Sequence record: PQ843332.1
Origin: Escherichia phage P-GXEC-L2P5
DNA length: 64,000 nucleotides
Direction: 5' to 3' (one strand)
Part shown: piece by piece, positions 3,402 through 64,000 of the stretch
How positions within the stretch are numbered: position 1 is the stretch's first letter
Layout: each line of letters starts with the position of its first letter
The notes under the pieces: generated by a model
The model's database searches: none
What the model saw: the letters and a program-made list of their open reading frames with translations, nothing else
Told to the model about the DNA's origin: nothing
Position numbers and translations under genes: made by a program

Positions 3402-3435
3402 TAAAATGGCCCTCACTACAACGTGGGGGCTTTTT

Positions 3436-4897: not shown

Positions 4898-4899
4898 TC

Positions 4900-6248: not shown

Positions 6249-6321
6249 CGATTATCTACGACGTCACAGGCCATAAAGGCGGCGGCGGCAAAGCCGGAAT
6301 CGTAACCGAGGACTTGAACGA

Positions 6322-9826: not shown

Positions 9827-9831
9827 ATGCG

Positions 9832-9853
9832 AAGGGGCCATCCGGCCCCTTTT
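9832..9853 (+). terminator. rho-independent terminator (aaggggccatccggcccctttt), usable on both strands
   Basis: GC stem, short loop, T-run; sits between convergent genes. Confidence 0.6.
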
Positions 9854-10818: not shown

Positions 10819-10820
10819 TA

Positions 10821-11042: not shown

Positions 11043-11122
11043 GGTATCATCCCCTATATTTGGTTGAGTTTTAGTATTACACCGCTCAACCAGGATTGCA
11101 ACCAATTTAAGAGGATTTAGCT

Positions 11123-12901: not shown

Positions 12902-12905
12902 ATAG

Positions 12906-12930
12906 AAGGGGCCATGCGGCCCCTTTTTTA
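12906..12930 (+). terminator. rho-independent terminator (aaggggccatgcggcccctttttta), bidirectional
   Basis: Perfect GC stem plus T-run between convergent genes. Confidence 0.65.
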
Positions 12931-31352: not shown

Positions 31353-31610
31353 ATCCTATTTTGAGTGTTTTTAGCTGGTCGCATTGGTTGCCGTGCAGTA
31401 TAAATATAGTGAATAGTTATGCAATAAAACTGCATAAAGTAAGCGGGACAAAAAGCGGGACAAACTTGGGGCGGGACAAAGCGGGACAGCACCCCCGTCC
31501 CGCCCCGGATGACGCGGCCTGGAGAGGAGCGGGACAGGCGGGACAACTCCCAGTCTTTCAGACTAGACGGGGGTCAGCGGCCCCCCTCGTCTGAGACTGC
31601 ATAAAATCCG
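31353..31610. repeat. non-coding repeat module R2, paralogue of R1
   Basis: aagcgggacaaaaagcgggacaaacttggggcgggacaaagcgggacagcacccccgtcccgcc is nearly identical to R1 226-290; same hairpin at about 31553-31607. Confidence 0.7.
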
Positions 31611-44147: not shown

Positions 44148-45325
44148 ATGTCTTTAACAGTGTTCCAGCGTAAACTCGTCACCGCGGTTACGCAAATGAT
44201 TCCCGATAACCTGAACGTGTTCAACGCTGCCGCTAACGGCGCTGTTGTTCTCGGTACGGGTGAAGTGCTTAAGGACGTTGTAGAAAAAATGTCCGTAGGC
44301 TTGATCGCCAACCTCGTTACCGACCGTAACGCCTATGCCCCTGTCGGTACACCGGCAACCGCAAAAGTGCTGGCGCGTATGCTGACCAACTCGGTTAACC
44401 TTTCCGCGAAAGTGGGTCCGGTTGCGATCACGAAGGCCATGATGGCTAAAATCGAAACCAACGTTAACAGCGTTGCGGCTGAGATTGCGGCACAGGCAAC
44501 TCAAGCGATTATGCTGCACTATCTGAAAGCTGGTATCGGCGCGGGTAAAGCGGCTATCGAAAGCAACACAGCGGCAAACTACACCCAACCGGCTCGCGTT
44601 GACGGCGTTGGCGGTCGTACATTCCCGACCCTGGCAGACTTCCCGCTGGCGGCTTCTAAGTTCGGCGATCAGGCGTCTTTGATTAAGTCCTGGTTTATGG
44701 ATGGCGTTACCTGGGCAAACTTCATCGCTTACCAGGCGCTTCCATCTGCCGAGCAGGTATTCGCGATCGGCGATCTGCAGGTAATGGGCGATGGTCTGGG
44801 CCGCCGTTTCATTATCTCCGATGCCGCTGCCGATGCAATGGGCGCGGGTAAAATGCTGGGTCTGGTCCCTGGCGCGGTTGCAGTTACCACCAACGGCCTT
44901 GATATGCTGGCGCAGGAGGCGCGGGTAAAATGCTGGGCCTGGTCCCTGGCGCGGTTGCAGTTACCACCAACGGCCTTGATATGCTGGCGCAGGAAAAAGG
45001 CGGTAACGAGAACATTGAGCGCTGGTGGCAGGGCGAGTTCGACTTCAACGTGGCTGTTAAAGGCTATCGTCTGAAGGCGTCCGCTCGTACTCCGATCGAA
45101 GGGGTACGCTCGTTCACGCTGTCCGATATCACCACTAAGGACAACTGGGAGCTGGATCAGGGCCAGGTAGACAACGCACCGGCAACCGTTCAGGACGTTG
45201 GTGCGGTGGGTGATGGCGATACTAAAGTCCGTCGTAAGACCCAGGCCGCACAGGCAGTGCCTACCCGTCACATCAAGGAAACGGCGGGCGTACTGGTTAC
45301 GCTGACTGCGACCACAGCGTCCTAA
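44148..45325 (+). CDS. major capsid protein candidate (frame broken by duplication near 44860-44995)
   Basis: About 365 aa after removing duplicate; position after scaffold, followed by strong terminator. Confidence 0.5.
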
Positions 45326-45339
45326 CAGGCGCACATCCC

Positions 45340-45370
45340 AAAGGGGCGGGCTTATGCCCGCCTTTTTTAT
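45340..45370 (+). terminator. rho-independent terminator (aaaggggcgggcttatgcccgcc + tttttt); duplicated copy near 45418-45448
   Basis: Stem-loop plus T-run after capsid gene. Confidence 0.6.
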
Positions 45371-45460
45371 AGGAGTGAATACAATGTATGGCGACCCGCA
45401 AACATTTGTCGATTACAAATGGGCGGGCTTATGCCCGCCTTTTTTATAGGAGTGAATGAA

Positions 45461-45961
45461 ATGTATGGCGACCCGCAAACATTTGTCGATTATGCCGCGG
45501 CGCGAGGCGTTGAAGTCACGCTGAGCGATGCAACGCGACACCTTACCGTAGTTAATGACTTCCTTAACGGCATCAACTGGATCGGAGAACCCGCAGACCA
45601 GACCGGAATCGACGCATGGCCTCGCATCAATTACCAATCGGACGGTAAGCCGGTGCGCGACACGCTCACTGACGTCGTGGCAGTAGTGCCCGCAGGGCAG
45701 ATCGTAGATTTTGCATCAATCCCCATTGCCGTCGAGCAAGCCGTTTACAGGTTGGCGATGTTGGTGGCGGACGAGGTCGATATTTCTCCTGTTGGCAGTG
45801 GTAAGGAGACTATCCGCGAAACTGTCGGCCCGATCACGATGGAATATGACCCTGCGACGATTGGTAGCGGTGTCTCGTTCCCGTGGTGGGATGGCTTGCT
45901 GGGCCACTGGATTGACTCAGACGGCAACGCAGCGGGTAATTTTGATGTATTCCGGGGGTAA
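45461..45961 (+). CDS. hypothetical head-tail joining region protein
   Basis: 166 aa ORF (MYGDPQTF...) between capsid and tail genes. Confidence 0.35.
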   Translation: MYGDPQTFVDYAAARGVEVTLSDATRHLTVVNDFLNGINWIGEPADQTGIDAWPRINYQSDGKPVRDTLTDVVAVVPAGQIVDFASIPIAVEQAVYRLAMLVADEVDISPVGSGKETIRETVGPITMEYDPATIGSGVSFPWWDGLLGHWIDSDGNAAGNFDVFRG

Positions 45962-46136
45962 TATGAATCCTGCATTACTGGCGGCTATTATCGCCGCAAA
46001 TACTAAACGCCAACCAGAACCGGGTATTCCGGGGGTGATATGAATCCTGCATTACTGGCGGCTATTATCGCCGCAAATACTAAACGCCAACCAGAACCGG
46101 AACCAGCGCCAGAACCGGAACCACCGGTACAGGAGG

Positions 46137-46496
46137 ATGATAATGGCGGGCTTTAATTACGCTGGGTTAAAGCGGAAAGTCAATCCGCTGATTAAAAAGT
46201 TCGGCATGACGGCTACGGTGACGCGTCCGGGGTCGGTTGACCGCGTAGACGGCGACGAAGTGATAATCCCGCCAACGTCGTTCGACGTCATCGGTCTTCG
46301 AGAGGAGTACAAGCCAAGCGAGATCGACGGGACGCGTATCGTTGCCGGTGATGTGAAGTTTTTGTGTCAGGCCGTCAAGCAGGTAAAGGTCGGGGATTTG
46401 GTTAGCCTGAACAATACAGACTACCGGGTTATCAATCCAAACCCCCTGCAACCGGCGGGCCAGACCATGCTGTTTCAACTACAGCTAAGGGGCTAA
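46137..46496 (+). CDS. hypothetical structural protein (head-tail connector region)
   Basis: 119 aa intact ORF in morphogenesis operon. Confidence 0.35.
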   Translation: MIMAGFNYAGLKRKVNPLIKKFGMTATVTRPGSVDRVDGDEVIIPPTSFDVIGLREEYKPSEIDGTRIVAGDVKFLCQAVKQVKVGDLVSLNNTDYRVINPNPLQPAGQTMLFQLQLRG

Positions 46497-46497
46497 C

Positions 46498-47243
46498 GTG
46501 GCTGAAGTCTACTCATTCGCCGCCACTATTGCTACATGGGTGGATAAGACGAAGGAGAACAACGATAAGATAACGTGGCTGAAGTCTACTCATTCGCCGC
46601 CACTATTGCTACGTGGGTGGATAAGACGAAGGAGAACAACGATAAGGCGGTGCGGGCGTACGGAATGCAAATACTCGGACGCCTTATTGAGATCTCCCCG
46701 GTGGGCGACCCTCGCCGGTGGAAAATTAACAAGGCTTATGCAATGGCCCGCCAGCACGCGAACAAGGTGAACGCCGCACAGCGCCGCAAGAATGGCGGCA
46801 AACTGAAGCGCGGGCAGAAGAAGCACGCCAGTGTGCTGGTATCATTCAAGACTAAAAACGGCAATGTGACATTCCGCCAGCGCGGCTGGGCCGCGAAGAA
46901 CTACACCGGGGGGCGCTTCCGGGGGAACTGGCAGGTGACATTTGATCGCCCGGCTGTCGGTGCTATTGACCGCGTTGACAAGGCCGGAACGGCAACATTA
47001 GCCGCGGGGCGTGAAGTGCTGGCGCATTACGATTCGAGTGAATACGGGTCGATCTGGTTTACTAACAACGTGCCATACGCGCAGCGACTTGAGTATGGCT
47101 GGAGTAAACAACCGGTGAATACGGGTCGATCTGGTTTACTAACAACGTGCCATACGCGCAGCGACTTGAGTATGGCTGGAGTAAACAAGCGCCCGCGGGG
47201 ATTGTTCGCGTCGTAGCGGCAGAAATTAATTCGAAGGTGAAAT
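46498..47243 (+). CDS. hypothetical neck / tail completion protein (frame broken by duplications near 46500-46640 and 47060-47180)
   Basis: GTG start at 46498 immediately after upstream stop; stop TAA 47241-47243 abuts next ATG. Confidence 0.35.
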
Positions 47244-47244
47244 A

Positions 47245-47744
47245 ATGAGCAATACCGCAATCCGCAAAGCGCTTAACAGCGTGGTAGAAGAGTTATCGGT
47301 AAGCCTGAGCACTAGCCAGCGCCCGATCCAGGTTAACTGGGAGAACGTGAGCGGCGACCACGCAAACGGCAGCGGTGTCTACCTGGAGCCGTACCTGCTA
47401 CCGGCAGGGTTAACTGGGAGAACGTGAGCGGCGACCACGCAAACGGCAGCGGTGTCTACCTGGAGCCGTACCTGCTACCGGCCCCGACCCAGTTTGTGGG
47501 CTTACAGCAGAAGGGCCGGATCTATGCTGGCGTATATCAGGTTGCCGTAGTGTTTCCCGCGGGCACTGGTACACAGTATGCGAGCGAACTGGCGGACGCC
47601 ATCGCGACGTCGGATAAATGGCAGGCCGTAAGGATTTCCGGAGCGGCCTTCCAGCTTCAGGACTCGCCTTATACCAGTTCGGTGGTCGAGGACGTTGATC
47701 GCGCCCGCATCGTGGTTACAGTCCCCTACACCTGTTGCGCCTGA
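47245..47744 (+). CDS. hypothetical tail terminator-like protein (frame broken by duplication near 47330-47460)
   Basis: ORF directly upstream of major tail protein gene. Confidence 0.35.
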
Positions 47745-47805
47745 TTTGGCGCAATTATGCGCGTGCTGTATCATTAAACCGTATATCTAAACAGGAGCGT
47801 TCATT

Positions 47806-48531
47806 ATGGGTTATCAACTTCCTAACGGGTCCAGCGTGCAGATCGGGTCCGTATTGGGTGCAGGCATCGCAGTTACGGCAGCGACCAACGCCGCGGCGTC
47901 AATCTCCGATCTTACGCAAGGCTGCGTTATCACCTGCGCGGAGTCGCATGGTCTTGCTGTGGGAGACGTGGTTATGTTCACTAAAACCCCGTGGGTACGT
48001 GCGCTTAACCGCGCGTTCATCGTGGGTAAAGTGGATGCTAACGACGTGACGCTGGCGCGCTTCGATACTCAAGACGTAACCAAATACCCGACCGGTGCTT
48101 TCGGCGTAGGCACACCGGGTGAGGTGGTGAAGGTGTCGAGCTTTATCGACTTCCCGTTTATCACTAACGTTGGTGTGTCGGGTGGCGACCAGCAGACCAC
48201 CACCTTCCAGCCGTTGCAGGTGAATACCGCGATCAGTCTGAACACCACGAAAAACCCGTTGGTCCAGACCTACACTTTCACCCACGACGAAGAAGACCCG
48301 ATCCGCCCGATTCTGGAAGACCTGGACGACACACAGAAAACCACTGTGATTAAGTTCACCAACCCGGCAGCGGCAAGCGGCAAAGGTGAGATCCGCATTT
48401 ACCCGGCTAAGGTGTCTTTCCAGAAGATTCCATCTGCTGAAGTAAACAACGTGGAGACGGTGGAGTCCACCCTCACTATGCAGTCCGATATGGTTATTTA
48501 CCGTAAGGACTTGGTCGAGGCGCTGTCGTAA
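47806..48531 (+). CDS. major tail protein candidate
   Basis: Intact 241 aa ORF; position directly upstream of G/GT chaperone genes; followed by terminator. Confidence 0.5.
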   Translation: MGYQLPNGSSVQIGSVLGAGIAVTAATNAAASISDLTQGCVITCAESHGLAVGDVVMFTKTPWVRALNRAFIVGKVDANDVTLARFDTQDVTKYPTGAFGVGTPGEVVKVSSFIDFPFITNVGVSGGDQQTTTFQPLQVNTAISLNTTKNPLVQTYTFTHDEEDPIRPILEDLDDTQKTTVIKFTNPAAASGKGEIRIYPAKVSFQKIPSAEVNNVETVESTLTMQSDMVIYRKDLVEALS

Positions 48532-48561
48532 TTTGGTCGCTTAAATAGCGGGTGTTAATAT

Positions 48562-48587
48562 GGGGCCAGTACGGCCCCTTTTTTATT
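48562..48587 (+). terminator. rho-independent terminator (ggggccagtacggcccc + tttttt)
   Basis: Perfect stem plus T-run. Confidence 0.6.
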
Positions 48588-48600
48588 GGAGAATTACATA

Positions 48601-48963
48601 ATGGCTAAATCACCACTCTTCACACTTGACCCTAAGCCGACCTTTAAGCTACCGATTGAGATCCCGCGCCCCGGAGAAAACGAACCTGGCAAAATGACGT
48701 TTACCGTGCGCCACCGTCCGATCGACGAGTTTTCGCAGACCATGCAGGATACTGAGCGCAAGTTGTCAGAATATGACGACAATGACCCGGACGGCTTTAA
48801 TGTTATGGTCGAGGCCATCATGCACGTCGCAGAAGGCTGGAATCTGCCGGACGAATTTAACGCGGAGAACGTCCGCCGCCTGGTGGTCAACTACCCGCGC
48901 GCGTTCGGCGTGTTCCATACGTCGTACTACCTCGAATTGATGGGGTTGCGTGAAAAAAACTAA
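48601..48963 (+). CDS. tail assembly chaperone, lambda gpG-like
   Basis: 120 aa ORF (MAKSPLFTLDPKPTF...) with GGAGA RBS; ends with slippery A-AAA-AAC then TAA. Confidence 0.6.
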   Translation: MAKSPLFTLDPKPTFKLPIEIPRPGENEPGKMTFTVRHRPIDEFSQTMQDTERKLSEYDDNDPDGFNVMVEAIMHVAEGWNLPDEFNAENVRRLVVNYPRAFGVFHTSYYLELMGLREKN

Positions 48964-49432
48964 TTGAGGCGGCGCGGCGCTTTTATGGCCCGCCCACTTC
49001 GTACTATCTCGAACTGATGGGATTGCGTGAAAAAAACTAATTGAGGCGGCGCGACGCTTTTATGGCCCGCCGCCACCCTCCGAAGATTTAGCCGCGAGTT
49101 TATGGGGCGCGGCCCCTGAAGATGTTTGCCCACCAGTTGCGCTATGGCCCGACAACGCGAAGGTAGTCGCCGTCTTCACGGATTGCTCCACGCAATGGCG
49201 CACCGGATTCGGCGGCGCATACGGCATCGACTACGGCGTACTGGAATGGCTTTTTAAGATGCACGGCATCGAAAACGCGCCGGATTCGGTGGCGCATACG
49301 GCATCGACTACGGCGTACTGGAATGGCTATTTAAGATGCACGGCATCGAAAACGCGCAACGTGCGTTTAAAGATATCAAGCTAATGGAACGCGTTGCGCT
49401 GGATGAAATGGCGCGGCAGAACCCCGCATAAC
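48954..49432 (+). CDS. gpT-like extension reached by -1 frameshift from the G-like gene (region contains duplications near 48937-49080 and 49180-49330)
   Basis: The -1 frame after AAAAAAC reads KKLIEAARRFYGPPPPSEDLAASLWGAAPEDV... and ends ...KLMERVALDEMARQNPA-stop at 49432. Confidence 0.5.
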
Positions 49433-49893
49433 GGAGCGGGACAGGCGGGACGTCCCGTTTTGTCCCGCCACCACTAAACCGCATATATACTCACTTTCAT
49501 TGCATAAATTAAAAGCGGGACAGGGGTGCTGTCCCGCTTTGTCCCGCCCCCAAAATGTGAATATCTATTCGATTTTCGTGCATAAAACAAACGGGACAAA
49601 AAGCGGGACAGAATTGGGCGGGACAAAGCGGGACAGCACCCCTGTCCCCGCCAGTGCTGCCGCGGGTTTTAGCCGATCGGGACAGGCGGGACAAAGCCCA
49701 GTCTTTCAGACTAGACGGGGGGTCTGTCACCCCCCTCGTCTGAGACTGAATAAGGTTTGTTTTAAATTCGCTGATACAATGACCGACGGCAACTGCATAA
49801 AAAGGGCCCCCCTCGTCTGAGACTGAATAAGGTTTGTTTTAAATTCGCTGATACAATGACCGACGGCAACTGCATAAAAAGGGGGACTGCATA
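49433..49893. repeat. non-coding repeat module R3, second-copy counterpart of R1
   Basis: Same GCGGGACA arrays, inverted pair GCGGGACAGGGGTGCTGTCCCGC, hairpin and TGCATAAA boxes; ORFs called here are spurious. Confidence 0.7.
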
Positions 49894-52800
49894 ATGGCAG
49901 ATCAGGCAGCGGGCATCACGCTCAAGGCGGACGTCGCGCAAATTAAAACGGCGAATACTGTGCTGGACACATTTGCGCAGAAATCCGAGAACACAGAACA
50001 GAAAGTCAAAAAATTAAACGACACCCTCGGCAAGTCGAAAAAGGTCACTGGCGACGCCGCGGGCGGAATGGAAAAGTTAGCGACTGAATCGCAGCGCGCC
50101 GCCGACGGCATGACGAAACAGGAGCGACTAGCCAGCCGATTAGGCATGTCGACCAAGAACCTGGGATTCGCATCGCCGCCGACGGCATGACGAAACAGGA
50201 GCGACTCGCCAGCCGATTAGGCATGTCGACCAAAAACCTGGGATTCGCATCGCGGAACGCCGCATTCCAGTTACAGGATATCGCGGTTACGCTTGAGATG
50301 GGTATGCCGGTGCACCGCGTCATGCTTCAGCAGCTACCGCAGCTTACTGGGGCGTTTGGCGGACTGGGAAACACGCTGCATTATGTCGTCGGCACACTCG
50401 GCCCGTTAGGGATTGGCATCGCTGCATTAACGGCAACGCTCGGCGTAGGGGTGGCAATTACGACCCGCGCAGAGAACCAGGTGGCGGCGCTTAATAAGAC
50501 GCTGGCGCTGTCCGGTAATATTTCAGGCCTGACAGCTAACCAGATCCTTGTGCTGTCCGAGAACGCCGAGCGCATGGGCGGGTCATTTCGCAAGACGCGT
50601 GACACAATCCAGGCGCTGGCGGCGGCGGGTGTGAAAGCGGGTGGTGACTTTGGCGCATTGGCTAAGGTAGTGAATGACTTTGCGAAGGTGTCCAGCCAGC
50701 CGATCGAGGATGTGGTGGCGGCGGTGGCGAAGCTGTCAAGAAGGTAGTGAATGACTTCGCGAAGGTGTCCAGCCAGCCGATCGAGGATGTGGTAGCGGCG
50801 GTGGCGAAGCTGTCAACCGACCCCGTTGGCGGACTGCGTGCGCTGGCGGATAAGTATCACGTCGTAAACGAAGCGCAGATCCAGCAGGTACAGTCGCTCG
50901 TTGATGCGGGTCGTGAGACAGACGCAGTTGCGTTGGCTAACAAAACAGCCGCTGCGTCGTTCACCAGCATGACCAATGAGATCAAGGCGAACATGGGTAC
51001 GCTTGAGCGATCTATGAACGTCGTCACATCGGCAGCCAAATCAATGTGGGACGCTATCCTGGATGTGGGTCGCGCGCAGTCCTCCAATGAGTCCGAGATG
51101 AAAGCGCGCGAATCACTCCAGCGCATGACCACGGCTTACTATGCCGAGATGAAAGCGGTAAACGCTGCCGGTGGGGTAATGACTGAAGCGCACTGCAGCG
51201 GCTGACCACGGCTTACTATGCCGAGATGAAAGCGGTAAACGCTGCCGGTGGGGTAATGACTGAAGCGCAGAAAGCACGTATTAACATGCTTTACAGCGAA
51301 CTGGTCGCCCAGGAAAAAGTGGTGGCGTCGCTCACCCTGCGTAACCGTGCGGAGCGAGACAACGCCCGCGCCGCAGATGAATCCGCAAAGGCGAACGAGG
51401 AGGCCAACCGCACCGCCCGCGACCGCGCCGCGTTTGAAAAGGAGTACGCAACTAACGCGAAGAAGCGCGCCGACGAGATCGCCCGCCTCAATTTGCTGAA
51501 TAAGCGCGGCGTTATTGATGAGAAAGAGCTTGCCGAGGCGGTTAAGCAGGTAAACGAGCGTTACAAAGACCCGGCCCCGAAGAAGGCCGCGGCTGTTCGC
51601 GTGGATGCCGGTATGAAAATGCTGGAAGTCGCACGGAGCGAACTGGCCCAGCTCCGAAAAAGGCCGCGGCTGTTCGCGTGGATGCCGGTATGAAAATGCT
51701 GGAAGTCGCACGGAGCGAACTGGCCCAGCTTCGAGAATCCGGCAAGCAGATCGAAGCCAACGCGTCTACGCAGACCCGCACGCAACGCGCGCAAGCGGCC
51801 TTAAACAAGCTGATCGCCGACAATGAGCAGTTAATCGCCGCAAGCAAAGAAAGAGCGCTAACGGCAGCCGAAAAGCAGCAATTAGTCGAGTTCGGGCGCG
51901 TGAAGGAAGTCCGCGAGCAGATCGTCGAAGAAGCCAAATTGCTGGACGCGAAAGAGAAGCAGGTTAAGGCGCACGCGCAGATCGATGCCTTCGTTAAGAA
52001 CCAGAACGCCGAACTATGCTGGATGCGAAAGAGCAGCAGGTTAAGGCGCACGCGCAGATCGATGCCTTCGTTAAGAACCAGAACGCCGAACTAAAAGCCA
52101 CCGCCGCGGGGTATGCGCTTTCCACTCGCGAAGCGGCAAACCTGCGCGAAGAATTGCAGCTAATCGACCGCCTGAAGCGTGTAGGCGCTAACGATACCGA
52201 TATTGACAAGGCGGTGTCTAAGCTGCGAGAATGCAGCTAATTGACCGCCTGAAGCGGGTTGGCGCTAACGATACCGATATTGATAAGGCGGTGTCTAAGC
52301 TGCGAGAAGTGCAGGAAGCACAGACCGGCGCTAACGCCTCGTTATGGGATGGATTCAGTCGCGGGCTTAAGGATAGCGTGGATGAAATGGGTAACGGATA
52401 TACGCAGATGGCGTCTCTCACGAAATTCACATTCAGCGCTATGCAGGACACGATGAACGAGTTTTTCGAGACTGGCAAGCTGAACGCAAAGGATATGGTT
52501 AAGTCCATCCTGAGCGAATTAATCAAGCTGGCTACCTCGCAGGCGTTCAAGTCCATCGTTAGCGCTTTCGGTGGCGACGGCGGCAAAAACGGATTGTTCG
52601 GCGCTATCTTCTCGGGCCTCACCAAGAATGCGGACGGCGGAGCGTACGTGGCGACGGCGGCAAAAACGGATTGTTCGGCGCTATCTTCTCGGGCCTCACT
52701 AAGAATGCGGACGGCGGAGCGTACACCGGAGGCAATCTCGCGGCCTATTCGGGGCAAGTGGTGAGCCAGCCTACCTTTTTCAGTTATGGCGTCCAGGCGT

Positions 52801-53152
52801 TCGCTAAGGGCGCTGGGTTGATGGGTGAGGCTGGACCCGAGGCCATCATGCCGCTGAAGCGCGGGCCGGACGGGAAACTGGGCGTTGCCGCGTCTGGCGC
52901 AGGCGGTGGTATGGTCGTGACGACTAACGTTTACACGGGGACCGGTAAAACGGATACCAGTGTGCCGCGTCTGGCGCAGGCGGTGGTATGGTCGTGACGA
53001 CTAACGTTTACACGGGGACCGGTAAGACGGATACCAGTGTCAGCGGGCCGGATCCCCGTACCGCGCAGGCGTTCGGCAAGCAAATCACCGAGGCGGTGAA
53101 GGCCGAGATCGTGAAGGCGACGAAACCGGGTGGTGTACTTTACAAACGATGA
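49894..53152 (+). CDS. tail length tape measure protein, second copy (fragmented by tandem duplications)
   Basis: ORFs 49894-50190 through 52671-52997 are collinear with 605-3401 at about 95% aa identity. Confidence 0.7.
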
Positions 53153-53186
53153 TAAAATGGCCCTCACTACAACGTGGGGGCTTTTT

Positions 53187-54017
53187 ATGTCACAAGGTAC
53201 AATCACACTAACGAAAGGAAGTAAGACCGTCACGGGCGCGGGAACGGCGTTCCTTAGCGAGATCGGGAAGGTACTCGTATTCGCCCGCATCGACGGCAAC
53301 GACTACACCGGCAAAATTGCGGCATTCAACTCGAACACGGTCATTACTCTGAAAGATAACTGGGCCGGGACGGCAACGACTACACCGGCAAAATTGCGGC
53401 ATTCAACTCGAACACGGTCATTACTCTGAAAGATAACTGGGCTGGGCCGACGAAATCCGGTGCGGCATATGAGCTAATCGAAGCACACGACCCGCGATCA
53501 AACGAATGGCCCTATTACTGGCACATGCAATTGCAAGGCGGCGGAGTGAGCTAATCGAAGCACACGACCCGCGATCAAACGAATGGCCATATTACTGGCA
53601 CATGCAATTGCAGGGCGGTGGCGACGTGCAGTTAGCTTTCCGGTCGGAGGAATTGCAATTCGGTAACGGTTACGGACAGAACATCGCGGACGGCCCGAAC
53701 GCCGAAACGAAACAGTTCCCCGTGCAATTCGTCGGGCTGACTACGGACAAATGGTGCGCATCGCGGACGGCCCGAACGCCGAAACGAAACAGTTCCCCGT
53801 GCAATTCGTCGGGCTGACTACGGACAAATGGTGCAATCCTAAACTGGTTTACAACTTCCTTCGCGGTCACTTCGTAAAACCGTTTGTCGTCACAGCACCA
53901 GATGGCGAAACAGGTTTATTCGTGGTCGAGCGTTCGAGCTTGTCGTACACGGACAACGGGCACTACACGGCAACGGTATCCGCCACCCTTAAGACTGCTA
54001 TTGGATTCGTAAGATGA
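53187..54017 (+). CDS. minor tail protein, gpM-like, second copy (frame broken by duplications near 53330-53430, 53470-53620 and 53690-53840)
   Basis: Collinear with 3436-4112. Confidence 0.5.
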
Positions 54018-54879
54018 ATAAACTTTATCGCGAGGCGACGCGCTTTGACCCATCGGGCCGCGTTCGCCTGATTCACATTGACGCGCAGGACGTGGAACCA
54101 GGCGACGGCGCGATCGGAGCGGGCCATCACTATTTTCATTACTGCTTCATTCCGCTGACGCGCAGGACGTGGAACCCGGAGACGGCGCGATCGGCGCGGG
54201 CCACCACTATTTTCATTACTGCTTTATCCCACACACTGCGGAGGATATCGCTGCCGCGGGTGGTGACGAGGATAAGCTAAAACCTAAATCAATCTTCTTC
54301 GGCGGGCAGGAGTTCGAATTTTGGCCCTTCGATTTGTCCGGCCTTAACTTTTCCACATCGACGGCAGCAGAACCGCAACTAACAATCGTCGATATTGGCG
54401 GCATAATAACCCGGCTGTCACTGAATCACGACCAGCTACTGGGCGCGAAGGTTGAAATAATCGACACATTCGCGAAGTTCCTGGATAACGGGTCGGACCC
54501 AGACCCGACGCAGAAACGAGTGCAGGAGTATTACATCGACTCGCAGGTCGGGCGCAATCCAGGCAAGCAAATCACCTTCGCACTATCCTCCCCCGCGGAT
54601 ATGGAAGGGCAGGTCGTTCCCCGTCGCCAGATCATGAACATGTGCGAATGGGCGCTCAACGGGAAGTACGCCAGCGGGGACGGTTGCACATGGAACCTTG
54701 CACAGCCTGGAATAAAGTATTACGACGAGCGAGGTAATGAAGTCATCGCAATGAATATGGACCGATGCGGCGGCTGTTTGTCCGACTGCTATCTTCGTTT
54801 TGGGCAAGGGCTTGCGGATCCTAAAGCTGCGGTGCTGGACTTCGGTGGTTTTCCTGGGTCCAAATTAATCAAGGGGTAG
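54014..54879 (+). CDS. minor tail protein, gpL-like, second copy (frame broken by duplication near 54090-54200)
   Basis: Collinear with 4109-4897. Confidence 0.7.
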
Positions 54880-54881
54880 CC

Positions 54882-55622
54882 ATGTTAACGAAAAAGGTTA
54901 AAAGCGATATCGCCGCGCACGTTGCGGCATGTCTGCCTGAAGAAGCCTGTGGCCTTGTTGTCATGGTGGGCCGCAAACAAGTATTTGTCCCGTGCATGAA
55001 CGTATTCGAAGACCCGACCGGCGTGCGCTCACGCAGAGACGCATTCACGATTAGTGATATGGCCTGGATGGATGCCGAGGATATGGGCGACGTCGTGCGA
55101 GTAGTCCACTCGCATCCAGGCCAGCGAGAGCTTACACCCTCACTTGGCGACGTTAACGGATGCAACGGCAGCGGCGTAGTCTGGACCATCACTAACGAAT
55201 ATGGCGACTTTATCGAGATCGACCCTGAAGACCCGCCGCTGGTAGGCCGCCGATTTGTTCTCGGAATTACAGATTGTTATGGCCTCGTCATGGACTGGCA
55301 CAAAAAGCAGGGTGTAAACCTGCCAGACTTCCGCGTGCCGTATAACTGGTGGGAGACAGGCGAAAATCTGTATATGGATAATTGGTACGGTGCTGGCTTC
55401 AGGGAATGCGAGGAGAATACGCCGGGGGCAATGGTCATCATGCAGATTAGCGCGCCTGTGCCTAACCACGCTGGGATATTCCTTCCGGGCAACCAACTAC
55501 TACACCATATCTACGGCAGCCTGTCGAGCGTGATTCCCTTCCGGTCAGGATTTTTCCGGGACAATGTGGTTAAATGGGTACGTCATAAAGACCTACCGGG
55601 GAATATAACAGAATGGCAATGA
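54882..55622 (+). CDS. tail assembly protein, gpK-like, second copy
   Basis: Intact 246 aa ORF; about 11 substitutions relative to 4900-5640. Confidence 0.8.
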   Translation: MLTKKVKSDIAAHVAACLPEEACGLVVMVGRKQVFVPCMNVFEDPTGVRSRRDAFTISDMAWMDAEDMGDVVRVVHSHPGQRELTPSLGDVNGCNGSGVVWTITNEYGDFIEIDPEDPPLVGRRFVLGITDCYGLVMDWHKKQGVNLPDFRVPYNWWETGENLYMDNWYGAGFRECEENTPGAMVIMQISAPVPNHAGIFLPGNQLLHHIYGSLSSVIPFRSGFFRDNVVKWVRHKDLPGNITEWQ

Positions 55623-56384
55623 CCACATTTAAATTATACGGCGTTTTAGGACGTCGATTCGGTAAAGTGCATAAGCTGGACTGCTTCACTCCGGGCGAGG
55701 GTATCACCGGCCTGTGCGTGAAGTTACCCGGCTTACAGGACTTTCTAATGTCGGCCCACCTGGACAATATGATGTTCAAGGTGCGCAAAGGCGACCACAC
55801 GATGACCGGCTATGATGAGCTGGGCGAGTTCCACGGCAACCGCGTATGATGTTCAAGGTGCGCAAAGGCGACCACACGATGACCGGCTATGATGAGCTGG
55901 GTGAGTTCCACGGCAACCGCGTCGTTACCATCGCGCCGGTTATGACGGGCGCAAAAAGAGGGTTGGGACAATTGCTGGCGGGTGTCGCGATCGTAGTGGC
56001 GTCGTTCTATACGGGCGGACTTGCTACTGCCGCTTTCGGGGCTTCGGCTGCAACCGCTGCCGCTATCGGGACGGCGACGTTTTCGTTCGGGATGTCGATG
56101 GCGCTGGGTGGCGTTATGCAATTGCTGTCGCCACAACCGAAAGGATTGCAGACAAGGCAGGACGTGGATAACAAAGCGTCGTACGCGTTCGGCGGGCCTT
56201 GCTGTCGCCACAACCGAAAGGATTGCAGACAAGGCAGGACGTGGATAACAAAGCGTCGTATGCGTTCGGAGGCCCAGTAAACACTACCGCGCAAGGCACG
56301 GCGCTTGGTGTATTATGGGGCGAGCGTGAGATCGGCGGCGCTATTATTTCAGCCGGAATCGTAACCGAGGACTTGAACGAATGA
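55613..56384 (+). CDS. tail assembly protein, gpI-like, second copy (frame broken by duplications near 55790-55880 and 56150-56260)
   Basis: Collinear with 5631-6248. Confidence 0.6.
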
Positions 56385-59300
56385 CGATTATCTACGACGT
56401 CACAGGGCATAAAGGCGGCGGCGGCAAACAGCACACCCCGCAGGAGACGCCCGATAGCCTGCATTCGCTGGCTAAAATCCGCATCTTGCTTGCGCTGGGG
56501 GAAGGGGAATTCGAAAGTATTACCAGCGCCAGCGAATTGCGGCAGCGTGTATATCTGGACGGAACACCGATCCAGAACGCGGACTTGTCCGAAAACTTCC
56601 CCGGCGCGCGTGTGGAGTTCCGCCCCGGAACACAGCACCAGGATGTGATCCACGGATTTTCAGCGGTGGAAAGTGAGCAATCTGTCGGCGTAAAACTGGA
56701 AAACGGCACGCCGTGGGTGCGCCAGATTAACGACACCAGCTTGGACGCCGTGCGCATTCGCATCGGCATTCCGGCACTGTACACAAACGAAGATAATGGC
56801 GACCTGGTGGGCGGGCGCATCGACTATAAGATCGTTGTGTATACGGATAACGCCGACCCGCGTGAGTTCAGATTCGCCGCCGTTGGTAAAACAATGTCGA
56901 CTATAAGATCGTTGTGTATACGGATAACGCCGACCCGCGTGAGTTCAGATTCGCCGCCGTTGGTAAAACAATGTCGCTGTATGAGCGCGACCACCGCATA
57001 GAATTACCTCCGAACGTTAACACCGGCTGGCGCGTGGAGGTGCACCGCATAACGGCAGACTCCACATCGGCGAAAGTGGTTAATGATATCCGGGTGCAGT
57101 CCATCACTGAGATTATTGACGCCCGCCTGCGTTACCCGCTAACCGCGCTGTTGTTTGTGGAGTTCGACGCCAAAGCGTTCCAGAACATCCCGCGCGTGCC
57201 CGCCTGCGTTACCCGCTAACCGCGCTGTTGTTTGTGGAGTTCGACGCCAAAGCGTTCCAGAACATCCCGCGCGTGTCCATCAAGTGCAAAGGCCGCAAAG
57301 TTCTAATACCGAACAACTACGACCCGATCAATCATACCTATGCCGGGTACTGGGACGGCACGTTTAAACGCGCATGGACGGATAACCCTGCGTGGCACTG
57401 GTACGATATTTGTATTACTGAGCGCTTCGGCCTCGGTCGGCGTATCAAACCGCAAATGCTAAACCGATACGCGCTCTGTACGATATTTGTATTACTGAGC
57501 GCTTCGGCCTCGGTCGGCGTATCAAACCGCAAATGTTAAACCGGTACGCGCTCTACCAGATTGCGCAGCGCTGCGATCAGTTGGTCAGCGACGGCAACGG
57601 TGGTCGAGAAATCCGCTTTAAGAATGATATGTACATTCAGTCACAGACGGATGCCTGGACCGTGCTTAAGGATTTAGCCGCCATCTTCGCTGGGATGACC
57701 TGGTGGGGAAACCAAATGTTGAATATCGTCAGTGACCAACCGGTCGCAGCAGTGTCGCACACTATCACCAACGCCTCGGTTATTGATGGCCGATTCGACT
57801 ACGCATCAGTGACCAACCGGTCGCAGCAGTGTCGCACACTATCACCAACGCCTCGGTTATTGATGGTCGATTCGACTACGCGTCCGGTAGCCAGAAAACT
57901 CGGTATTCCACATTCGCGGTAGCATACGGCAACCCGAAGAACCACTATGAAGATGCCATCGCAACGGGGCAACGTGTCGAACTGGTACGCCGCCATAAGA
58001 TTAACCGTCTTGATATAACGGCGATCGGCTGTACGCGTGAGTCAGAAGCGCAACGACGTGGGCACTGGGCGCTAATCTCCAACCAGCTTGACCAGCAAGT
58101 TAGCTTTAAGGTGGGCATGGAGGGACTTTTCTTTATTCCTGGTAGCGTAGTCGCGATCGCCGATACAAACATTTCTGGCGGCTTCGAGACACGCGGCGGT
58201 CGCCTGTTGTCGGACCCTGGCACGCGTACCGTGCTTAACACGGACAGCGAAATCACATTCCGCCCAGGTGATAAATTCCTGGTACGCACCGATAGTGGTA
58301 ATGTAGAGACTCGCGAGATCGCCAGCGTCAACGGCAACAAGGTTACGCTAAAAACCGCACTGGACGCCGACCCGATTCCTGATCAGCCGTTTTGCGTCGA
58401 TGGCAACGATATCCAGTTGCAGAAGTTCCGCATCACCGACCTGGAATATGACGACTCTACGAGCACTTTCTCGGTGCGCGGGATTGAATACAACGATAGC
58501 AAGTATGATGCCGTTGATAATGGCGCTCGCCTTGATCCTGGTATCTTCACGCAAGTGCCCGACGGGGTAATGAAGGGGCCGGAATCCGTGACCATCACCC
58601 CGTCGCAGATTTCATCGCAAGGACAGCTAATCACCAACGTGGATATTGTTTTCGGCCGGAATCCGTGACCATCACCCCGTCGCAGATTTCATCGCAAGGA
58701 CAGCTAATCACCAACGTGGATATTGTATTCCCTCCGGTGAAGGATGCCGTGGTGTATGAAATCCAGTGGAGGCGTACCAGCCTTCAGAATATGGAAATCC
58801 AGTGGGGTAACGACTGGGTGAATATCCCACGCACGGCGTCGAACGGCGCGCACATCCCTAACGTGTTCTCCGGTAACTACCAGGCACGCGTCCGCGCGAT
58901 CGGTATGGGCGAGATTTCATCTCCGTGGGTGTCGTCCGCCATCACGCCGGTGGAAGGTCGTCTCGGTGGGCTTAACGCACCAATCATCACCAACGCTATT
59001 TCGGGCCTTCACCAGATCTTGTGGAAGTGGAACCACAACAACGCCGCTACTGATATCTCGTACACCGAGCTTGAAGTGCGCAAGACCGGTGAGACTGAAT
59101 GGAAATTCCTTACCAACGTCCCATATCCGGGGGCGGAGTATGCGCAAACATCGCTGGAGTTCGGAATTTACCAGCAGTTGCGCGCCCGTGTAGCGGATAA
59201 AATCGGCAACCTGTCGGACTGGTCGGCCCCGTTTGAAGGGCAGGTGAGTGACAAAGTTGACGAGTACATGAAGGGGCTTGATGACGAGTTCTTGACTTCC

Positions 59301-60339
59301 GAGGATGGTAAACGCTTCCAGGAAGCAATCAAGTTGACGAGTACATGAAGGGGCTTGATGACGAGTTCTTGACTTCCGAGGATGGTAAACACTTCCAGGA
59401 AGCTATTAACACGATCCCGCAAGGCATTTATGAGTCAATGCTCACCGACGCCCAGCAGCTATTCAACGCCCGCGCCGAGTACAAAGGGATTTATGCGGAA
59501 ATCAAGGTCGCGTATAACGTGGCGGCGGACGCCCACAAGGCGGTCGCTCAACTGGAGACGTTGATCGGCACGCGACTTGATGACGCGGAAGCTGCGATCC
59601 ACACGTTGCAGACGGCGCAGACGCTCAACTGGAGACGTTGATCGGCACGCGACTTGATGACGCGGAAGCTGCGATCCGCACGTTGCAGACCGCGCAGAGC
59701 ACACAGGAACAAGCGTTCGCCCAGTACCAGCAAACTGTTGCCGCTAAGTTCGGGGAACAGGAAGCCGCCATCCAGCAGGTACAAACGGCAACCGCAGACG
59801 TGGCGGGAGCGCTGGCGGAATATAAGACCCAGGTCGCTACACAGTTCGGTCAGCAGTCCGCCGCTATCGAGCAGAAGATGACGTCCTCGTTTAACCACTC
59901 TGGTGGTAGCGCCACGTATAGCCTTAAGGCTGGCGTGACATATAACGGGACTTATTATGATGCGGGTATGCAGCTCTCCGTCGTGACGTCTGGCAACGCG
60001 GTTAAATCGCGTATTGCGTTCAAGGCGGACCAGTTCTACATCATGCATCCGTCCAATGGGACGCTGTCGTCTGCGTTTATTGTGGACGGTGGCGCGGTGT
60101 ATATCGACACGGCACGCATCAAGAACGCGTCCATCAACTTCGCGCAGATAACAGACACGCTGCAATCGAATAACTACGACGGCAGCACGCGCGGCTGGCG
60201 CTTAGGGAAAGATGGAACGTTTATCAACCTGGGCACCGGTAGCGGCGGCGGGATGAAACAGACGAACACAAGAATCAGCGTGAAGGACGGAAACGGCGTT
60301 CTCCGCGTGCAGATTGGTGAGCTTACTGGTAGCTGGTAG
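56381..60339 (+). CDS. host specificity protein, gpJ-like, second copy with divergent C-terminal domain (fragmented by at least seven duplications)
   Basis: N-terminal about 1,000 aa collinear with 6322-9826; extra repeat block and a different last ~60 aa. Confidence 0.75.
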
Positions 60340-60375
60340 TATAGGGGCTTCGGCCCCTTTTTAACGAGGTTATTT

Positions 60376-60678
60376 ATGGCATTCGGTATCGCAACGTGGG
60401 ACGCGCAAGGACGCCCAAACAACTACGGCATTAAACCGGTAAGCGTGATCGGAAGGATTCATCTTGCGGAAGGACAAAAATCAGGCGCATGGTCATTCCC
60501 TGTACCGGCGGGGATGAAGGTCGGATACGTGGTCGCACTGGATAAAGGCGCGGTCGGGCCAGGACGCAGAATATCTGCCAGCGGGAACACTATCACGGTT
60601 TCCGCGGCAAGTGCAGTAGGTGGCGGGGTTTACTCCGCATCTGAATGTGACGTTATTGTTTTTGTGGAGCGAGCATAA
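60376..60678 (+). CDS. hypothetical protein specific to second copy
   Basis: Intact 100 aa ORF replacing the minus-strand cassette found after gpJ in copy 1. Confidence 0.4.
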   Translation: MAFGIATWDAQGRPNNYGIKPVSVIGRIHLAEGQKSGAWSFPVPAGMKVGYVVALDKGAVGPGRRISASGNTITVSAASAVGGGVYSASECDVIVFVERA

Positions 60679-61429
60679 TGGCTAATTACGGCGCGTTGAT
60701 TGACTTACCAAACGGCAACCCGTTTATCACGCCAGAATCGACGCCGTTTTGTCTCTTCCGCCGTGTGGTTGTTGGGTCTTCGGCTAACGGCACTGCGCAG
60801 TCGGCGGCTGCCGATATTAATTTGGGTGGTGACTACCCTGCAATAGCGTTTGTTAAAACTACGCACACCGCCCAGCCGACCGTCGTAGGGTCTTCTCGCG
60901 TTGGTAATGTGGTGAAGGTGAGCGCCAGCAATCCATTCGGGCAGGGCTTCACGATGACGGCTTACATCTTTGCTATATTCCCACAGACCCTTCCGCGGTG
61001 GGGCTTCGCTATTTGGGATAAGACGGGGAAGCTAGTGCTTACTAATGAGAGTCGCGTACTAAGTCCCTTCCGCGGTGGGGCTTCGCTATTTGGGATAAGA
61101 CGGGGAAGCTAGTGCTTACTAATGAGAGTCGCGTACTGAGCGATTTAGTTACCGTCGGGTCGCCTGGCGCTAACGGGGGGATTAACATTGATCAGACGCT
61201 AAACGGCAGCTACGCCGTCGCACCGGGAATATTGGGGTCTACGCTGATCCGGTTTTTTGTGCAGGGCCAGCCGCAGGTAATATCGGTAACGGCGTACACG
61301 GGGGCCAGATTTGATGGGTCGCGAACTCGTATATCGGCAGCGTCGTCGGGGAACGCCACGGGGGATGTGGTGGGGTATACTAACAACGGCAACGCGATTA
61401 TGGCGATTAACACTGCCAATTATGATTGA
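60678..61429 (+). CDS. hypothetical protein specific to second copy (duplication near 61030-61130)
   Basis: ORFs 60678-61112 and 61112-61429; ATGA-type overlap with upstream gene. Confidence 0.4.
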
Positions 61430-61430
61430 A

Positions 61431-61456
61431 GAAAGCCCCGAAAGGGGCTTATTTGC
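61431..61456 (+). terminator. bidirectional rho-independent terminator (aaagccccgaaaggggctt)
   Basis: Perfect stem between convergent genes. Confidence 0.55.
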
Positions 61457-61667
61457 AGGTTGTGCTTTTGAAATGGTCTACAGACACGTACTGGAAGCTA
61501 AACGGATAACCCGCCCTTAGCATTTTATGCCCGGAGAAGTCCGCAACACCATACACAGGTACCGCATAATCCATGCCGCTATTCTGGTATGTGGCGTCGC
61601 AGACTTTAGCGGGCATGTTGGCACAACCGGACAAAAGAACCGCACAAATCATAATTAAAGTTTTCAT
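61449..61667 (-). CDS. small lipoprotein, second-copy variant with unrelated mature domain
   Basis: Same signal peptide MKTLIMICAVLLSGC as 10821-11042; mature part ANMPAKVCDATYQNSG... is unrelated. Confidence 0.5.
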   Translation of the reverse strand: MKTLIMICAVLLSGCANMPAKVCDATYQNSGMDYAVPVYGVADFSGHKMLRAGYPFSFQYVSVDHFKSTTCK

Positions 61668-61747
61668 GGTATCATCTCCTATATTTGGTCGAGTTTCAGT
61701 ATTACACCGCTCAACCAGGATTGCAACCAATTTATGAGGATTTAGCT

Positions 61748-63526
61748 ATGGCAGCGGGCACACTATCCGTAACGAATAACAGCAAGGCGGTTGTAGGGGT
61801 CGGCACAACGTTTACCTCGTTTAACGCTGGCGACTTCTTAACGCTGGTGGTAGGACAAGTCCCCTACACCGTAGCAATCGCGTCCATTGAAAGCGAAACC
61901 GCGCTTACGCTGGTGTTGCCGTTCGACGGCCCAACGGCAACCGGCCTCGCGTGGGATGGCGTTAAGCGCGATACCATGTCACTGGCGACGATGGGTGTAA
62001 CCGTACAGGCACAGAAAGCATTGCGCTTGATGATTGCAGATGAAAACAACTGGCGTGCAATCTTCGGCGACGCTGAAGAAATCACCGTGACGCTGCCTAA
62101 CGGGCAGGTAATGCAGGGTATGTCATGGGGCTACCTGTCGCAGTTGATGAAACAGATCGACCCCGTTGAGATGCTAAACCTGCAACAACAAGCCGCCGCA
62201 TCGGAAGCAGCCGCGCAAGGATACCGCGACCAGGCCGAAGGCATTAAAACCGAGACGGCAGGCATCCGCGACGACACCAGGTTGATTAATGCTGATACGC
62301 TGGCGATCCGCAACGACACCGATGCCATCAGGACGAATACCAACCAGATTAAATCAGATACGCAGGCCATTAAGGACCAGACGAACCAGATCAAGACGGA
62401 CACCGGCGTTATTCGCGACGAAGCCAATACCGCGAAGACGGACGCGCAATCCGCCCGCGATGCTGCGCTGGGATACCGGAACGAGGCCGAACAGTTCAAG
62501 AATGAGATCGACCCGTCGAAACTTCTGGCAAAGGCCAACAACCTTAGCGACGTTGCCGACCCCGCGGCAGCGCGCGACCACTTAGGCATCGGGCCTGACG
62601 ACACCCTTAACCTTGGTGGCCTGGTAACGTCCGGCAGTATCTCCGCGGGCCGCAACACATGGGATGGGTCTAACTGGGGGAGCCAGGGACTTCTCGCCTC
62701 ATTAGTGGTCCTATACCCGGACGGAAGCTCAGCCCCAGGCTTATACGTGCGAAAATCCAACGGCGACAGCGGATATGCGGCGGGATGGTTGTATAACGAG
62801 AACAGTATCAGTTGGGCTACTAACGCGCGTATTGCGGGCTTTCAGTTCCGGTCCCCTAAAGGCGCGATGGGGTATAACCAGCTATGGTCAGAGGCTGTGG
62901 TGCGTGCGGACGACTTCATGGCACAGAATGGCGCGGAAAACTATAAGTCGTTAATCGCGGGGGCCGCTACAACGCAAGGTCACGGATACTCGGGCGGTGT
63001 CTCGTTCGGGATAATGACAACTGGCATAAACAACTGGCCCCGGGCGCAGATCTCGATCGGCACAGCAGACCGTGACGCCGCTGGGAATATGGCTTCGCAG
63101 ATGCACTTCCGCTTTAATGAATATGGGCAGATTTCTTACACAGGGCCACTGGGGACGGGGTCGTTCCAGCAAGTACCTGCGTCGGATCGCAACCTGAAGC
63201 ATGACATTGCCGATGACGCAAGCAGCACCGCCTACGACAATATCAAGGCTTTGCGGTTCCGCACGTTCGTATTCAACAACGATGAACAGGAACGGCAGCG
63301 TCGCGGTATTATTGCGCAGGAAGCGGAAGAAATCGACCCGCTGTATGTGAAGCACCGCGTGTATAACAATCACGAATTAAATGGGCCTCTGGTGCACCAG
63401 CTTGAACTGGATACGACACCGCTGTTACTCGACACTATGCGAGCGTTGCAGGATACGATTAAGCAGGTGGAGGATTTGAAGGCGGAGATCGCAGCGATGA
63501 AGCAGGCGGAAGAGTTGAAGAAATAA
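61748..63526 (+). CDS. tail fibre protein, second copy, with different distal domain and same type of C-terminal chaperone
   Basis: N-terminal about 300 aa collinear with 11123-12901; distal domain non-homologous; C-terminal ...RRGIIAQEAEEIDPLYVK...DLKAEIAAMKQAEELKK. Confidence 0.7.
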   Translation: MAAGTLSVTNNSKAVVGVGTTFTSFNAGDFLTLVVGQVPYTVAIASIESETALTLVLPFDGPTATGLAWDGVKRDTMSLATMGVTVQAQKALRLMIADENNWRAIFGDAEEITVTLPNGQVMQGMSWGYLSQLMKQIDPVEMLNLQQQAAASEAAAQGYRDQAEGIKTETAGIRDDTRLINADTLAIRNDTDAIRTNTNQIKSDTQAIKDQTNQIKTDTGVIRDEANTAKTDAQSARDAALGYRNEAEQFKNEIDPSKLLAKANNLSDVADPAAARDHLGIGPDDTLNLGGLVTSGSISAGRNTWDGSNWGSQGLLASLVVLYPDGSSAPGLYVRKSNGDSGYAAGWLYNENSISWATNARIAGFQFRSPKGAMGYNQLWSEAVVRADDFMAQNGAENYKSLIAGAATTQGHGYSGGVSFGIMTTGINNWPRAQISIGTADRDAAGNMASQMHFRFNEYGQISYTGPLGTGSFQQVPASDRNLKHDIADDASSTAYDNIKALRFRTFVFNNDEQERQRRGIIAQEAEEIDPLYVKHRVYNNHELNGPLVHQLELDTTPLLLDTMRALQDTIKQVEDLKAEIAAMKQAEELKK

Positions 63527-63528
63527 GA

Positions 63529-63555
63529 GAGGGGCCATACAGCCCCTTTTTAGTT
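63529..63555 (+). terminator. rho-independent terminator (gagaggggccatacagcccc + ttttt)
   Basis: Stem-loop plus T-run after tail fibre gene. Confidence 0.55.
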
Positions 63556-63626
63556 TGAGTTTTCCCAGTCCATTTTGCGCCGCACCAGCGGGCTTTCGTA
63601 ATATTCCTTCCCCTCCACTTCCATTT

Positions 63627-64000
63627 TTAGTTTGAGTTTTCCCAGTCCATTTTGCGCCGCACCAGCGGGCTTTCGTAATATTCCTTTCCTTCCACTTCCA
63701 CCAAAGGCCAGTCGTTCACAATCACGTATGGCTCCGCGATATCCTCAATCACGCCGTGCGCGCTTTGCGGCCCTAACGACACACCAACCAGGATAACACC
63801 GGCAACGCGACGGGTCAGATATTCGCGAGCGCAACGTGCCTCAACCAGCCCACGACGGATGCCGCTGGTGGCCTTAACCTCGTAGGCCCATACGGCATCA
63901 ATCATGTGTTCTTTGTAGTCAGGGCCGGACTTAACCTTGCGCTTGCCGACCATGATAATATCGCCGCGGTCGATAGTGTTAGCGCTAAACAGGCCAGTAC
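63627..64000 (-). CDS. hypothetical protein, homologue of 12928-13580 (partial; 5' end beyond window; duplication near 63550-63680)
   Basis: ORF 63627-63953 closely matches 12928-13254. Confidence 0.3.
   Translation of the reverse strand, partial: TGLFSANTIDRGDIIMVGKRKVKSGPDYKEHMIDAVWAYEVKATSGIRRGLVEARCAREYLTRRVAGVILVGVSLGPQSAHGVIEDIAEPYVIVNDWPLVEVEGKEYYESPLVRRKMDWENSN

Follow-up and report, generated by a model that had tools for sequence, protein, structure and literature searches.

What is the three-gene cassette at 60376-61667 of the window (the whole 64,000-nucleotide stretch of DNA analysed here), and why does the same window hold, between the same flanking tail genes, a second and different set at 9853-11042? 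A preliminary description took the flagged region for the second copy of a tail locus, in which two plus-strand ORFs stand in place of a minus-strand gene and a lipoprotein has kept its signal peptide while exchanging its mature domain. With a probability of roughly 0.88, we read 60376-61667 as the FhuA-type allele of a host-recognition module lying between gpJ and the lateral tail fibre genes, and the other copy as the LptD-type allele of that module, the two standing in one window only through the assembly of mixed genotypes. The window covers a ~45 kb Dhillonvirus genome 1.28 times, its laps coming from different genotypes, and we refer to the copies as lap 1 and lap 2.

The flagged cassette has the gpJ homologue and the lateral tail fibre gene as its immediate neighbors. 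The gpJ-like central tail tip protein of lap 2 (56381-60339, plus strand) is scattered over many ORFs in the raw window, has 1139 aa after collapse of the 77-bp duplications described below, and is collinear with gp56 of Escherichia phage Gluttony; its last 58 aa (60163-60339) form the FhuA-type C-terminal tip, which co-varies with the cassette; PF09327 (Phage_Tail_Tip) is found in the C-terminal part of gpJ in both laps. Relative to copy 1, gpJ of copy 2 also has an additional ~32-aa coiled-coil repeat unit (EQEAAIQQVQTATADVAGALAEYKTQVATQFG) at 59722-59840. Hairpins follow the gpJ stop in both laps; that of lap 2, directly 3′ of the stop (60343-60358, plus strand), is GC-rich, followed by a U run, and terminator-like, with weak folding (-11.7 kcal/mol, z -1.5). 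The first cassette gene, orfA (60376-60678, plus strand), is present as described and encodes a small beta-sandwich protein of 100 aa belonging to phrog_557 (‘outer membrane protein’). A gene also exists at 60678-61429 (orfB, plus strand, phrog_425, ‘membrane associated protein’), as the preliminary description held, but not as an intact ORF: the 752 nt are split by a frameshift into 60678-61112 and 61112-61429, the cause being a 77-bp tandem duplication (60988-61064 and 61065-61141) whose second copy is an assembly overlap absent from Gluttony, and collapse restores 675 nt and 224 aa, exactly as in Gluttony gp58. Between the convergent orfB and cor genes, a hairpin at 61433-61450 folds on both strands (-13.5 and -12.1 kcal/mol, z -4.1 and -3.2) and resembles a bidirectional terminator; scans with promoter and terminator consensus sequences did no better than on shuffles. 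The third gene, on the minus strand (61449-61667), encodes a 72-aa lipoprotein of the Cor superinfection-exclusion family (phrog_1119, E 2.7e-27; NF047972 equivalog, 57.4 bits against a cut-off of 31, residues 2-71), annotated as Cor in Gluttony (gp59); its signal peptide and lipobox, MKTLIMICAVLLSGC, occupy 61623-61667, and the lipobox (LLSGC followed by A) has the expected cysteine and a non-Asp residue, alanine, at position +2. The lateral tail fibre of lap 2 follows on the plus strand (61748-63526, 592 aa), with a conserved N-terminus, a variable distal domain, and a Peptidase_S74 chaperone domain; its repeat region has an additional ~20-aa unit relative to copy 1 (62252-62311).

This arrangement is found in isolated phages. 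Over 59700-63540, the sequence shares 99.6% identity and its gene order with Escherichia phages Gluttony, Pride, and Lust; the alignment falls into two pieces because the 77-bp repeat is absent from those genomes. In the Gluttony annotation, gpJ is followed by an ‘outer membrane protein’ (303 nt), a ‘membrane associated protein’ (675 nt), a minus-strand Cor, and the tail fibre. The same cassette is carried, at 93-95% identity, by JLBYU37, JLBYU60, and Teewinot, which are experimentally FhuA-dependent (PMC10373560).

Lap 1 belongs to another set of relatives. Copy 1 (9000-12930) shares 96.8% identity with Sodalis phage SO-1 and 95.5% with Oekolampad (Bas18), the allele itself being 95-97% identical to that of Oekolampad, which is LptD-dependent (PMC8594841). 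Here the gpJ tip comprises the last 67 aa (9623-9826, plus strand), and the minus-strand ORF of 324 aa described earlier is indeed present at 9853-10827; read from the ATG at 10818 (9853-10818), it encodes a 321-aa receptor-binding protein (RBP) with a full-length match to DUF6453 (PF20051, 405 bits), which corresponds to Oekolampad bas18_0025 and is ~97% identical to chain C of PDB 9RPT, the Oekolampad RBP as solved at the extracellular side of LptDE (PMC12685063). Directly upstream, also on the minus strand (10821-11042), is a putative LptD-type superinfection-exclusion lipoprotein of 73 aa (phrog_4281; PF24052, 76.6 bits against a gathering cut-off of 27; 98% identical to bas18_0026) that matches Rtp45 (PDB 9RPS_D, E 1.5e-8) with the Cys-x8-Cys spacing kept; Rtp45 binds the periplasmic side of LptD and blocks RBP binding (PMC12685063). 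The fibre gene (11123-12901, plus strand, 592 aa) has an SO-1/Oekolampad-type distal domain and a Peptidase_S74 chaperone domain. The earlier suggestion that the lipoprotein is matched to receptor specificity is thus supported, copy 1 pairing an LptD-type RBP with an Rtp45 homologue and copy 2 pairing the cassette of FhuA phages with Cor.

Which protein of lap 2 would recognize FhuA? We regard orfB as the probable FhuA-binding RBP. Its structure was modeled from the Teewinot homologue, which is 98% identical, and the model appears to match a proven RBP encoded at the same position; this apparent match supports, although it does not prove, an RBP role for orfB, and it hints at, again short of proof, a common ancestry of orfB and the DUF6453 RBP. 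At the sequence level the FhuA and LptD cassettes are unrelated: orfA and orfB have no DUF6453 match in Pfam, and comparing them with the LptD RBP by hhalign resulted in a probability of ~1% with shallow alignments and with deeper ones (35-48 sequences) alike, yielding only a consistent register, in which a weak alignment places orfB 45-135 opposite RBP 148-243 as expected from the apparent structural match, and a 14-residue N-terminal motif. Phmmer against PDB sequences found no match to either protein, and a Foldseek search of the PDB with the orfB model returned nothing at E < 0.04.

The alternative that survives best, which we nevertheless consider unlikely, is that orfA and orfB are membrane or accessory factors of Cor exclusion and that the gpJ tip itself binds FhuA. 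Such roles are suggested by the database names of the two proteins and by PMC13164509, where the two small proteins of the cor cassette are guessed to serve exclusion; orfA and orfB always accompany Cor in FhuA phages, both in our survey and in PMC13164509; and gpJ is treated as the RBP in PMC10373560. Set against this, neither protein has a signal peptide or a hydrophobic segment, both are encoded in the direction of the late tail genes and opposite to Cor, the gpJ tip in question is just 58 aa long, published AlphaFold models favor binding of orfB to FhuA (PMC12309495; bioRxiv 10.64898/2026.04.02.716166), and the orfB model, as noted, resembles an RBP from the very same position.

If orfB is indeed an RBP that shares the DUF6453 fold, the RBP families encoded downstream of gpJ could be divergent versions of one scaffold, the FhuA cassette being an inverted and split form of a single-gene RBP. 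We put this forward tentatively, at somewhat less than even odds. Consistent with it, the combined length of orfA (100 aa) and orfB (224 aa), 324 aa, equals that of the copy-1 ORF read from its GTG start (the solved protein starts from the ATG, giving 321 aa), and a strand motif, G-x-x-I-x-D-x-x-G-x-P, is repeated where each putative domain starts. The 2026 preprint calls these RBP families unrelated (bioRxiv 10.64898/2026.04.02.716166). A structural link between orfB and the LptD RBP would back the RBP label for the 224-aa protein, on which recent papers disagree.

To place the two alleles among their relatives, we compared 29 related loci taken from viral and metagenomic collections, and five isolate genomes. 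Data were complete for 33 loci once the two window copies were included, and these stand for 28 distinct genotypes. Four module types were found. Type A, as in lap 2, has the 58-aa gpJ tip, orfA, orfB, and Cor; type B, as in lap 1, has the 67-aa tip, the 324-aa ORF (321-aa RBP from ATG), and the 73-aa lipoprotein; type C has a 69-aa tip, an RBP of 313 or 314 aa that is 33% identical to that of type B, and an Rtp45-like lipoprotein; and type D has a gpJ extended by ~190 aa, a different lipoprotein, and no separate RBP. The types of gpJ tip, RBP, and lipoprotein are linked without exception across the 28 distinct genomes. The fibre behaves differently: four of the seven fibre clusters seen in at least two distinct genomes occur with two module types, and the fibre type of copy 1 itself accompanies an LptD module in SO-1 and Oekolampad and an FhuA module in SM_W22 (97% identity), EE09 (93%), and SECphi18 (82%). 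Co-variation of the lipoprotein with both gpJ and fibre, proposed in the preliminary description, is therefore upheld for the gpJ tip but not for the fibre, whose distal domain assorts independently of the module; the independent assortment that the description had named as evidence against itself is seen for the fibre and not for gpJ.

Some features of the rarer types deserve record. The type C loci (L006, L011, L014, L026, L028) have an Rtp/HK578-like LptD module with the lipoprotein signal peptide MKTLIKSAIIAAVVVMTVGC; those of type D (L007, L021), with their extended gpJ and an 80-aa lipoprotein, are possibly of LamB type. Within type B, the first ~28 residues of the gpJ tip vary, for example RSNNFVAGSSGWNLPKSGNAELNNVTVRG and QSNNFASGSRGWRIQKGGAAEFNEVTVRG (compare the copy-1 locus, WIN_c1, and L008 with L010 and L012), and the RSNNFVAGSSGWNLPKSGNAELNNVTVRG variant is almost the same as the beginning of the type D tips; type specificity is confined to the last ~40 residues of type B tips, and recombination has therefore occurred inside the tip too.

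The edges of the exchanged segment can be mapped directly by comparing the two laps. On the left, likeness stops ~60 codons before the gpJ stop, at window ~9635 and ~60175, leaving unalignable tips of 67 and 58 aa, in agreement with the earlier observation that the gpJ C-termini differ. On the right, the copies share ~95% of their nucleotides from the beginning of the fibre gene up to and including the signal peptide, with a fall to background right after the Cys-Ala codons; in a BLASTP comparison the two lipoproteins match at 100% over residues 1-16 (MKTLIMICAVLLSGCA) and are not aligned beyond them. A retained signal peptide, a replaced mature domain, and a breakpoint at the lipobox were all anticipated in the preliminary description, and all are borne out by the aligned loci. 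The fibre distal domains also differ between copies, as had been stated: the genes are alike over ~800 nt at the 5′ end, where copy 2 has a 60-nt insertion, and then diverge until the last ~30 nt.

The right-hand edge is not peculiar to these two laps. The signal peptide is identical in all 27 loci of types A and B (27/27), with synonymous codon differences only; its nucleotide identity is 94% between the two types and 96% within a type, while the 150 nt that follow are 34% identical between types and 88% within them. The right-hand edge of the exchangeable unit therefore always lies inside the signal-peptide codons. Types C and D have only MKTLI(K) in common with the signal peptide of types A and B. 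Whatever becomes of the shared-scaffold idea, the strictly conserved lipoprotein signal peptide would serve as the right-hand homology arm for exchange of the whole module. The parts of PMC8594841 and bioRxiv 10.64898/2026.04.02.716166 available to us make no mention of a lipobox breakpoint or of a signal peptide common to Cor-type and LptD-type lipoproteins.

Why both alleles appear in a single window is explained by the way the sequence was assembled. A direct scan found 81 two-copy duplications at lag 77 across the window, and Tandem Repeats Finder reported ~80 two-copy repeats with period 77 throughout; the same direct scan found zero junctions at lags 55, 76, 78, 99, and 127, and zero at lag 77 in shuffled sequence. 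The duplications (for example 6216-6369, 13193-13346, 49730-49883, and 60988-61141) are spaced 77-4665 bp apart with a median of ~480 bp, and nearly every long gene in the raw window is broken by them. Since 77 is a standard de Bruijn k, we read them as untrimmed overlaps between assembly-graph segments. Thirteen of the 81 are exact, 62 have 1-3 mismatches, and 6 have more; the 68 non-exact repeats have 1-10 mismatches, chiefly at the ends of the 77-mers, which a plain graph overlap would not yield. With one copy removed at each junction, the sequence shortens to 57,763 nt and all long genes become whole again, among them the tape measure (880 aa, twice), gpJ (1116 aa in lap 1 as well as the longer form in lap 2), the portal, and a 1062-aa ORF over the DNA polymerase region. 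In the collapsed sequence, 1-12685 (window 1-13378) matches 44977-57763 (window 49366-64000) at ~91.5% identity, and throughout its length the sequence is collinear with Dhillonvirus genomes of 44.5-44.9 kb that are circularly permuted. We rejected an origin as a prophage or tandem prophage: there are no bacterial flanks in the window, and the sequence is collinear with virulent Dhillonvirus genomes.

The ‘second copy’ is thus a second genotype from a mixed sample rather than a duplication within one genome, and on this point the preliminary description must be set aside: identity between the laps reaches only ~91.5%, their spacing equals a genome length, and they are strewn with the lag-77 junctions. 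A single ~45 kb genome per genotype is strongly implied. We regard as very improbable the contrary reading that one genome has two real tail modules, in which cassette, lipoprotein domain, gpJ tip, and fibre tip were replaced jointly as a co-adapted block; all four parts do differ between the window copies, and gpJ tip, RBP, and lipoprotein do co-vary in relatives, but the distance between the copies is that of a whole genome on a walk riddled with k=77 overlaps, each isolate Dhillonvirus genome (44-45 kb) contains a single module, and fibre distal types are found with both module types. Least probable of all is that assembly itself made the cassette difference by mis-joining the lap-2 cassette from an unrelated phage at the 77-bp junctions (such junctions lie at 59545, 60988, and 63547, and the walk is mosaic), a reading already refuted by isolate genomes, since the same arrangement of gpJ tip, orfA, orfB, Cor, and fibre occurs at 99.6% identity in three of them and also in many others.

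We wish to stress that the walk through lap 2 is a mosaic, so that module linkage could not safely be read from the window by itself; it is the isolate genomes that uphold the linkage. The region 52648-63623 is 98-99.8% identical to Gluttony, and the remaining window only ~85-95%; two origins fit such a walk, natural recombination or a chimeric path across a mixed population. Separately, an intergenic element rich in GCGGGACA motifs recurs at 69-570, 31429-31604, and 49579-49883, that is, at two places per genome lap, with a 79-bp tandem repeat at 69-234 and 12-mers (AAGCGGGACAAA), its copies being ~84-87% identical; it may be a regulatory or packaging-related repeat.

We propose that the FhuA-type module works as follows. 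The orfB protein, probably together with orfA, would dock on the matching 58-aa gpJ tip and bind the outer-membrane transporter FhuA, triggering DNA injection. Cor, made from the opposite strand and exported by means of its lipoprotein signal peptide, would be anchored in the inner leaflet of the outer membrane, as its +2 alanine suggests, and bind FhuA from the periplasmic side, so that infected cells and their debris would cease to adsorb FhuA-dependent phages. In the other lap, the single 321-aa RBP and the Rtp45-like lipoprotein, both on the minus strand, make up the corresponding LptD-type allele. The alleles would be swapped by recombination, with the conserved gpJ body as the left homology arm and the fibre 5′ end, intergenic region, and lipoprotein signal peptide as the right; since these arms would flank the gpJ tip, RBP, and mature lipoprotein, the three would move as one unit, and the fibre distal domain would recombine separately. 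Finally, an assembler that walked 1.28 laps round a mixture of two Dhillonvirus genotypes, leaving the 77-bp overlaps in place, has brought both alleles into one window.

Module type should predict from sequence alone both the terminal receptor of a coliphage (FhuA or LptD) and the phages excluded by the infected cell; the practical value for phage cocktail design and host-range engineering is modest and already in the literature. Contigs with a regular 77-bp stutter need to be collapsed before gene calling; if they are not, long genes look broken and a mixed population mimics duplication.

Several known systems resemble the module. In T5, pb5 and Llp work in the same way, a dedicated RBP on the tail tip being encoded next to a small lipoprotein that acts on the periplasmic face of the receptor and blocks adsorption (PMC9586334); pb5 is unrelated to the RBP discussed here, and Llp is only ~20% identical to Cor proteins (PMC9586334). 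Closer still is the cor cassette of T1, phi80, N15, HK022, and ES18, in which two small ORFs and Cor lie downstream of the tail tip gene (Wietzorrek 2006, as cited in PMC13164509): the lap-2 cassette has the same three genes in the same order and orientation and the same association with FhuA, and differs in being carried by a virulent Dhillonvirus, the small ORFs having putative roles in all of these phages. T1 and phi80 Cor exclude FhuA-dependent phages (cited in PMC13164509 and PMC9586334), and the cassette and its two small proteins are discussed in PMC13164509 and PMC12309495. The likeness to Oekolampad (Bas18) and Rtp45 concerns copy 1 (RBP ~97% identical, lipoprotein 98% identical to bas18_0026) and not the flagged region 60376-61667; Dunbar et al. 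(2025) solved an LptD-type RBP and an exclusion lipoprotein on the receptor, and expression of the Oekolampad-type lipoprotein failed in that study, so that exclusion by this protein itself is a prediction (PMC12685063).

The nearest parallel is the RBP locus of the BASEL phages. Maffei et al. (2021) described allelic RBP loci downstream of gpJ in Drexlerviridae, Dhillonvirus, Nonagvirus, and Seuratvirus, with alleles that match the receptor, move horizontally, and adjoin cognate exclusion proteins, and with separate dips in similarity at the RBP locus and the fibre locus (PMC8594841); the 2026 preprint confirmed this scheme in 101 siphoviruses and associated the C-terminal tip of gpJ with specificity (bioRxiv 10.64898/2026.04.02.716166). 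A modular RBP locus with a cognate exclusion lipoprotein has therefore already been published (PMC8594841, PMC12685063, bioRxiv 10.64898/2026.04.02.716166), and our finding is a rediscovery: the BASEL locus has the same position, the same FhuA and LptD alleles, the same pairing with exclusion lipoproteins, and the same horizontal exchange as the module in the window, from which it shows no difference of substance, the window merely juxtaposing two alleles through an artefact of assembly.
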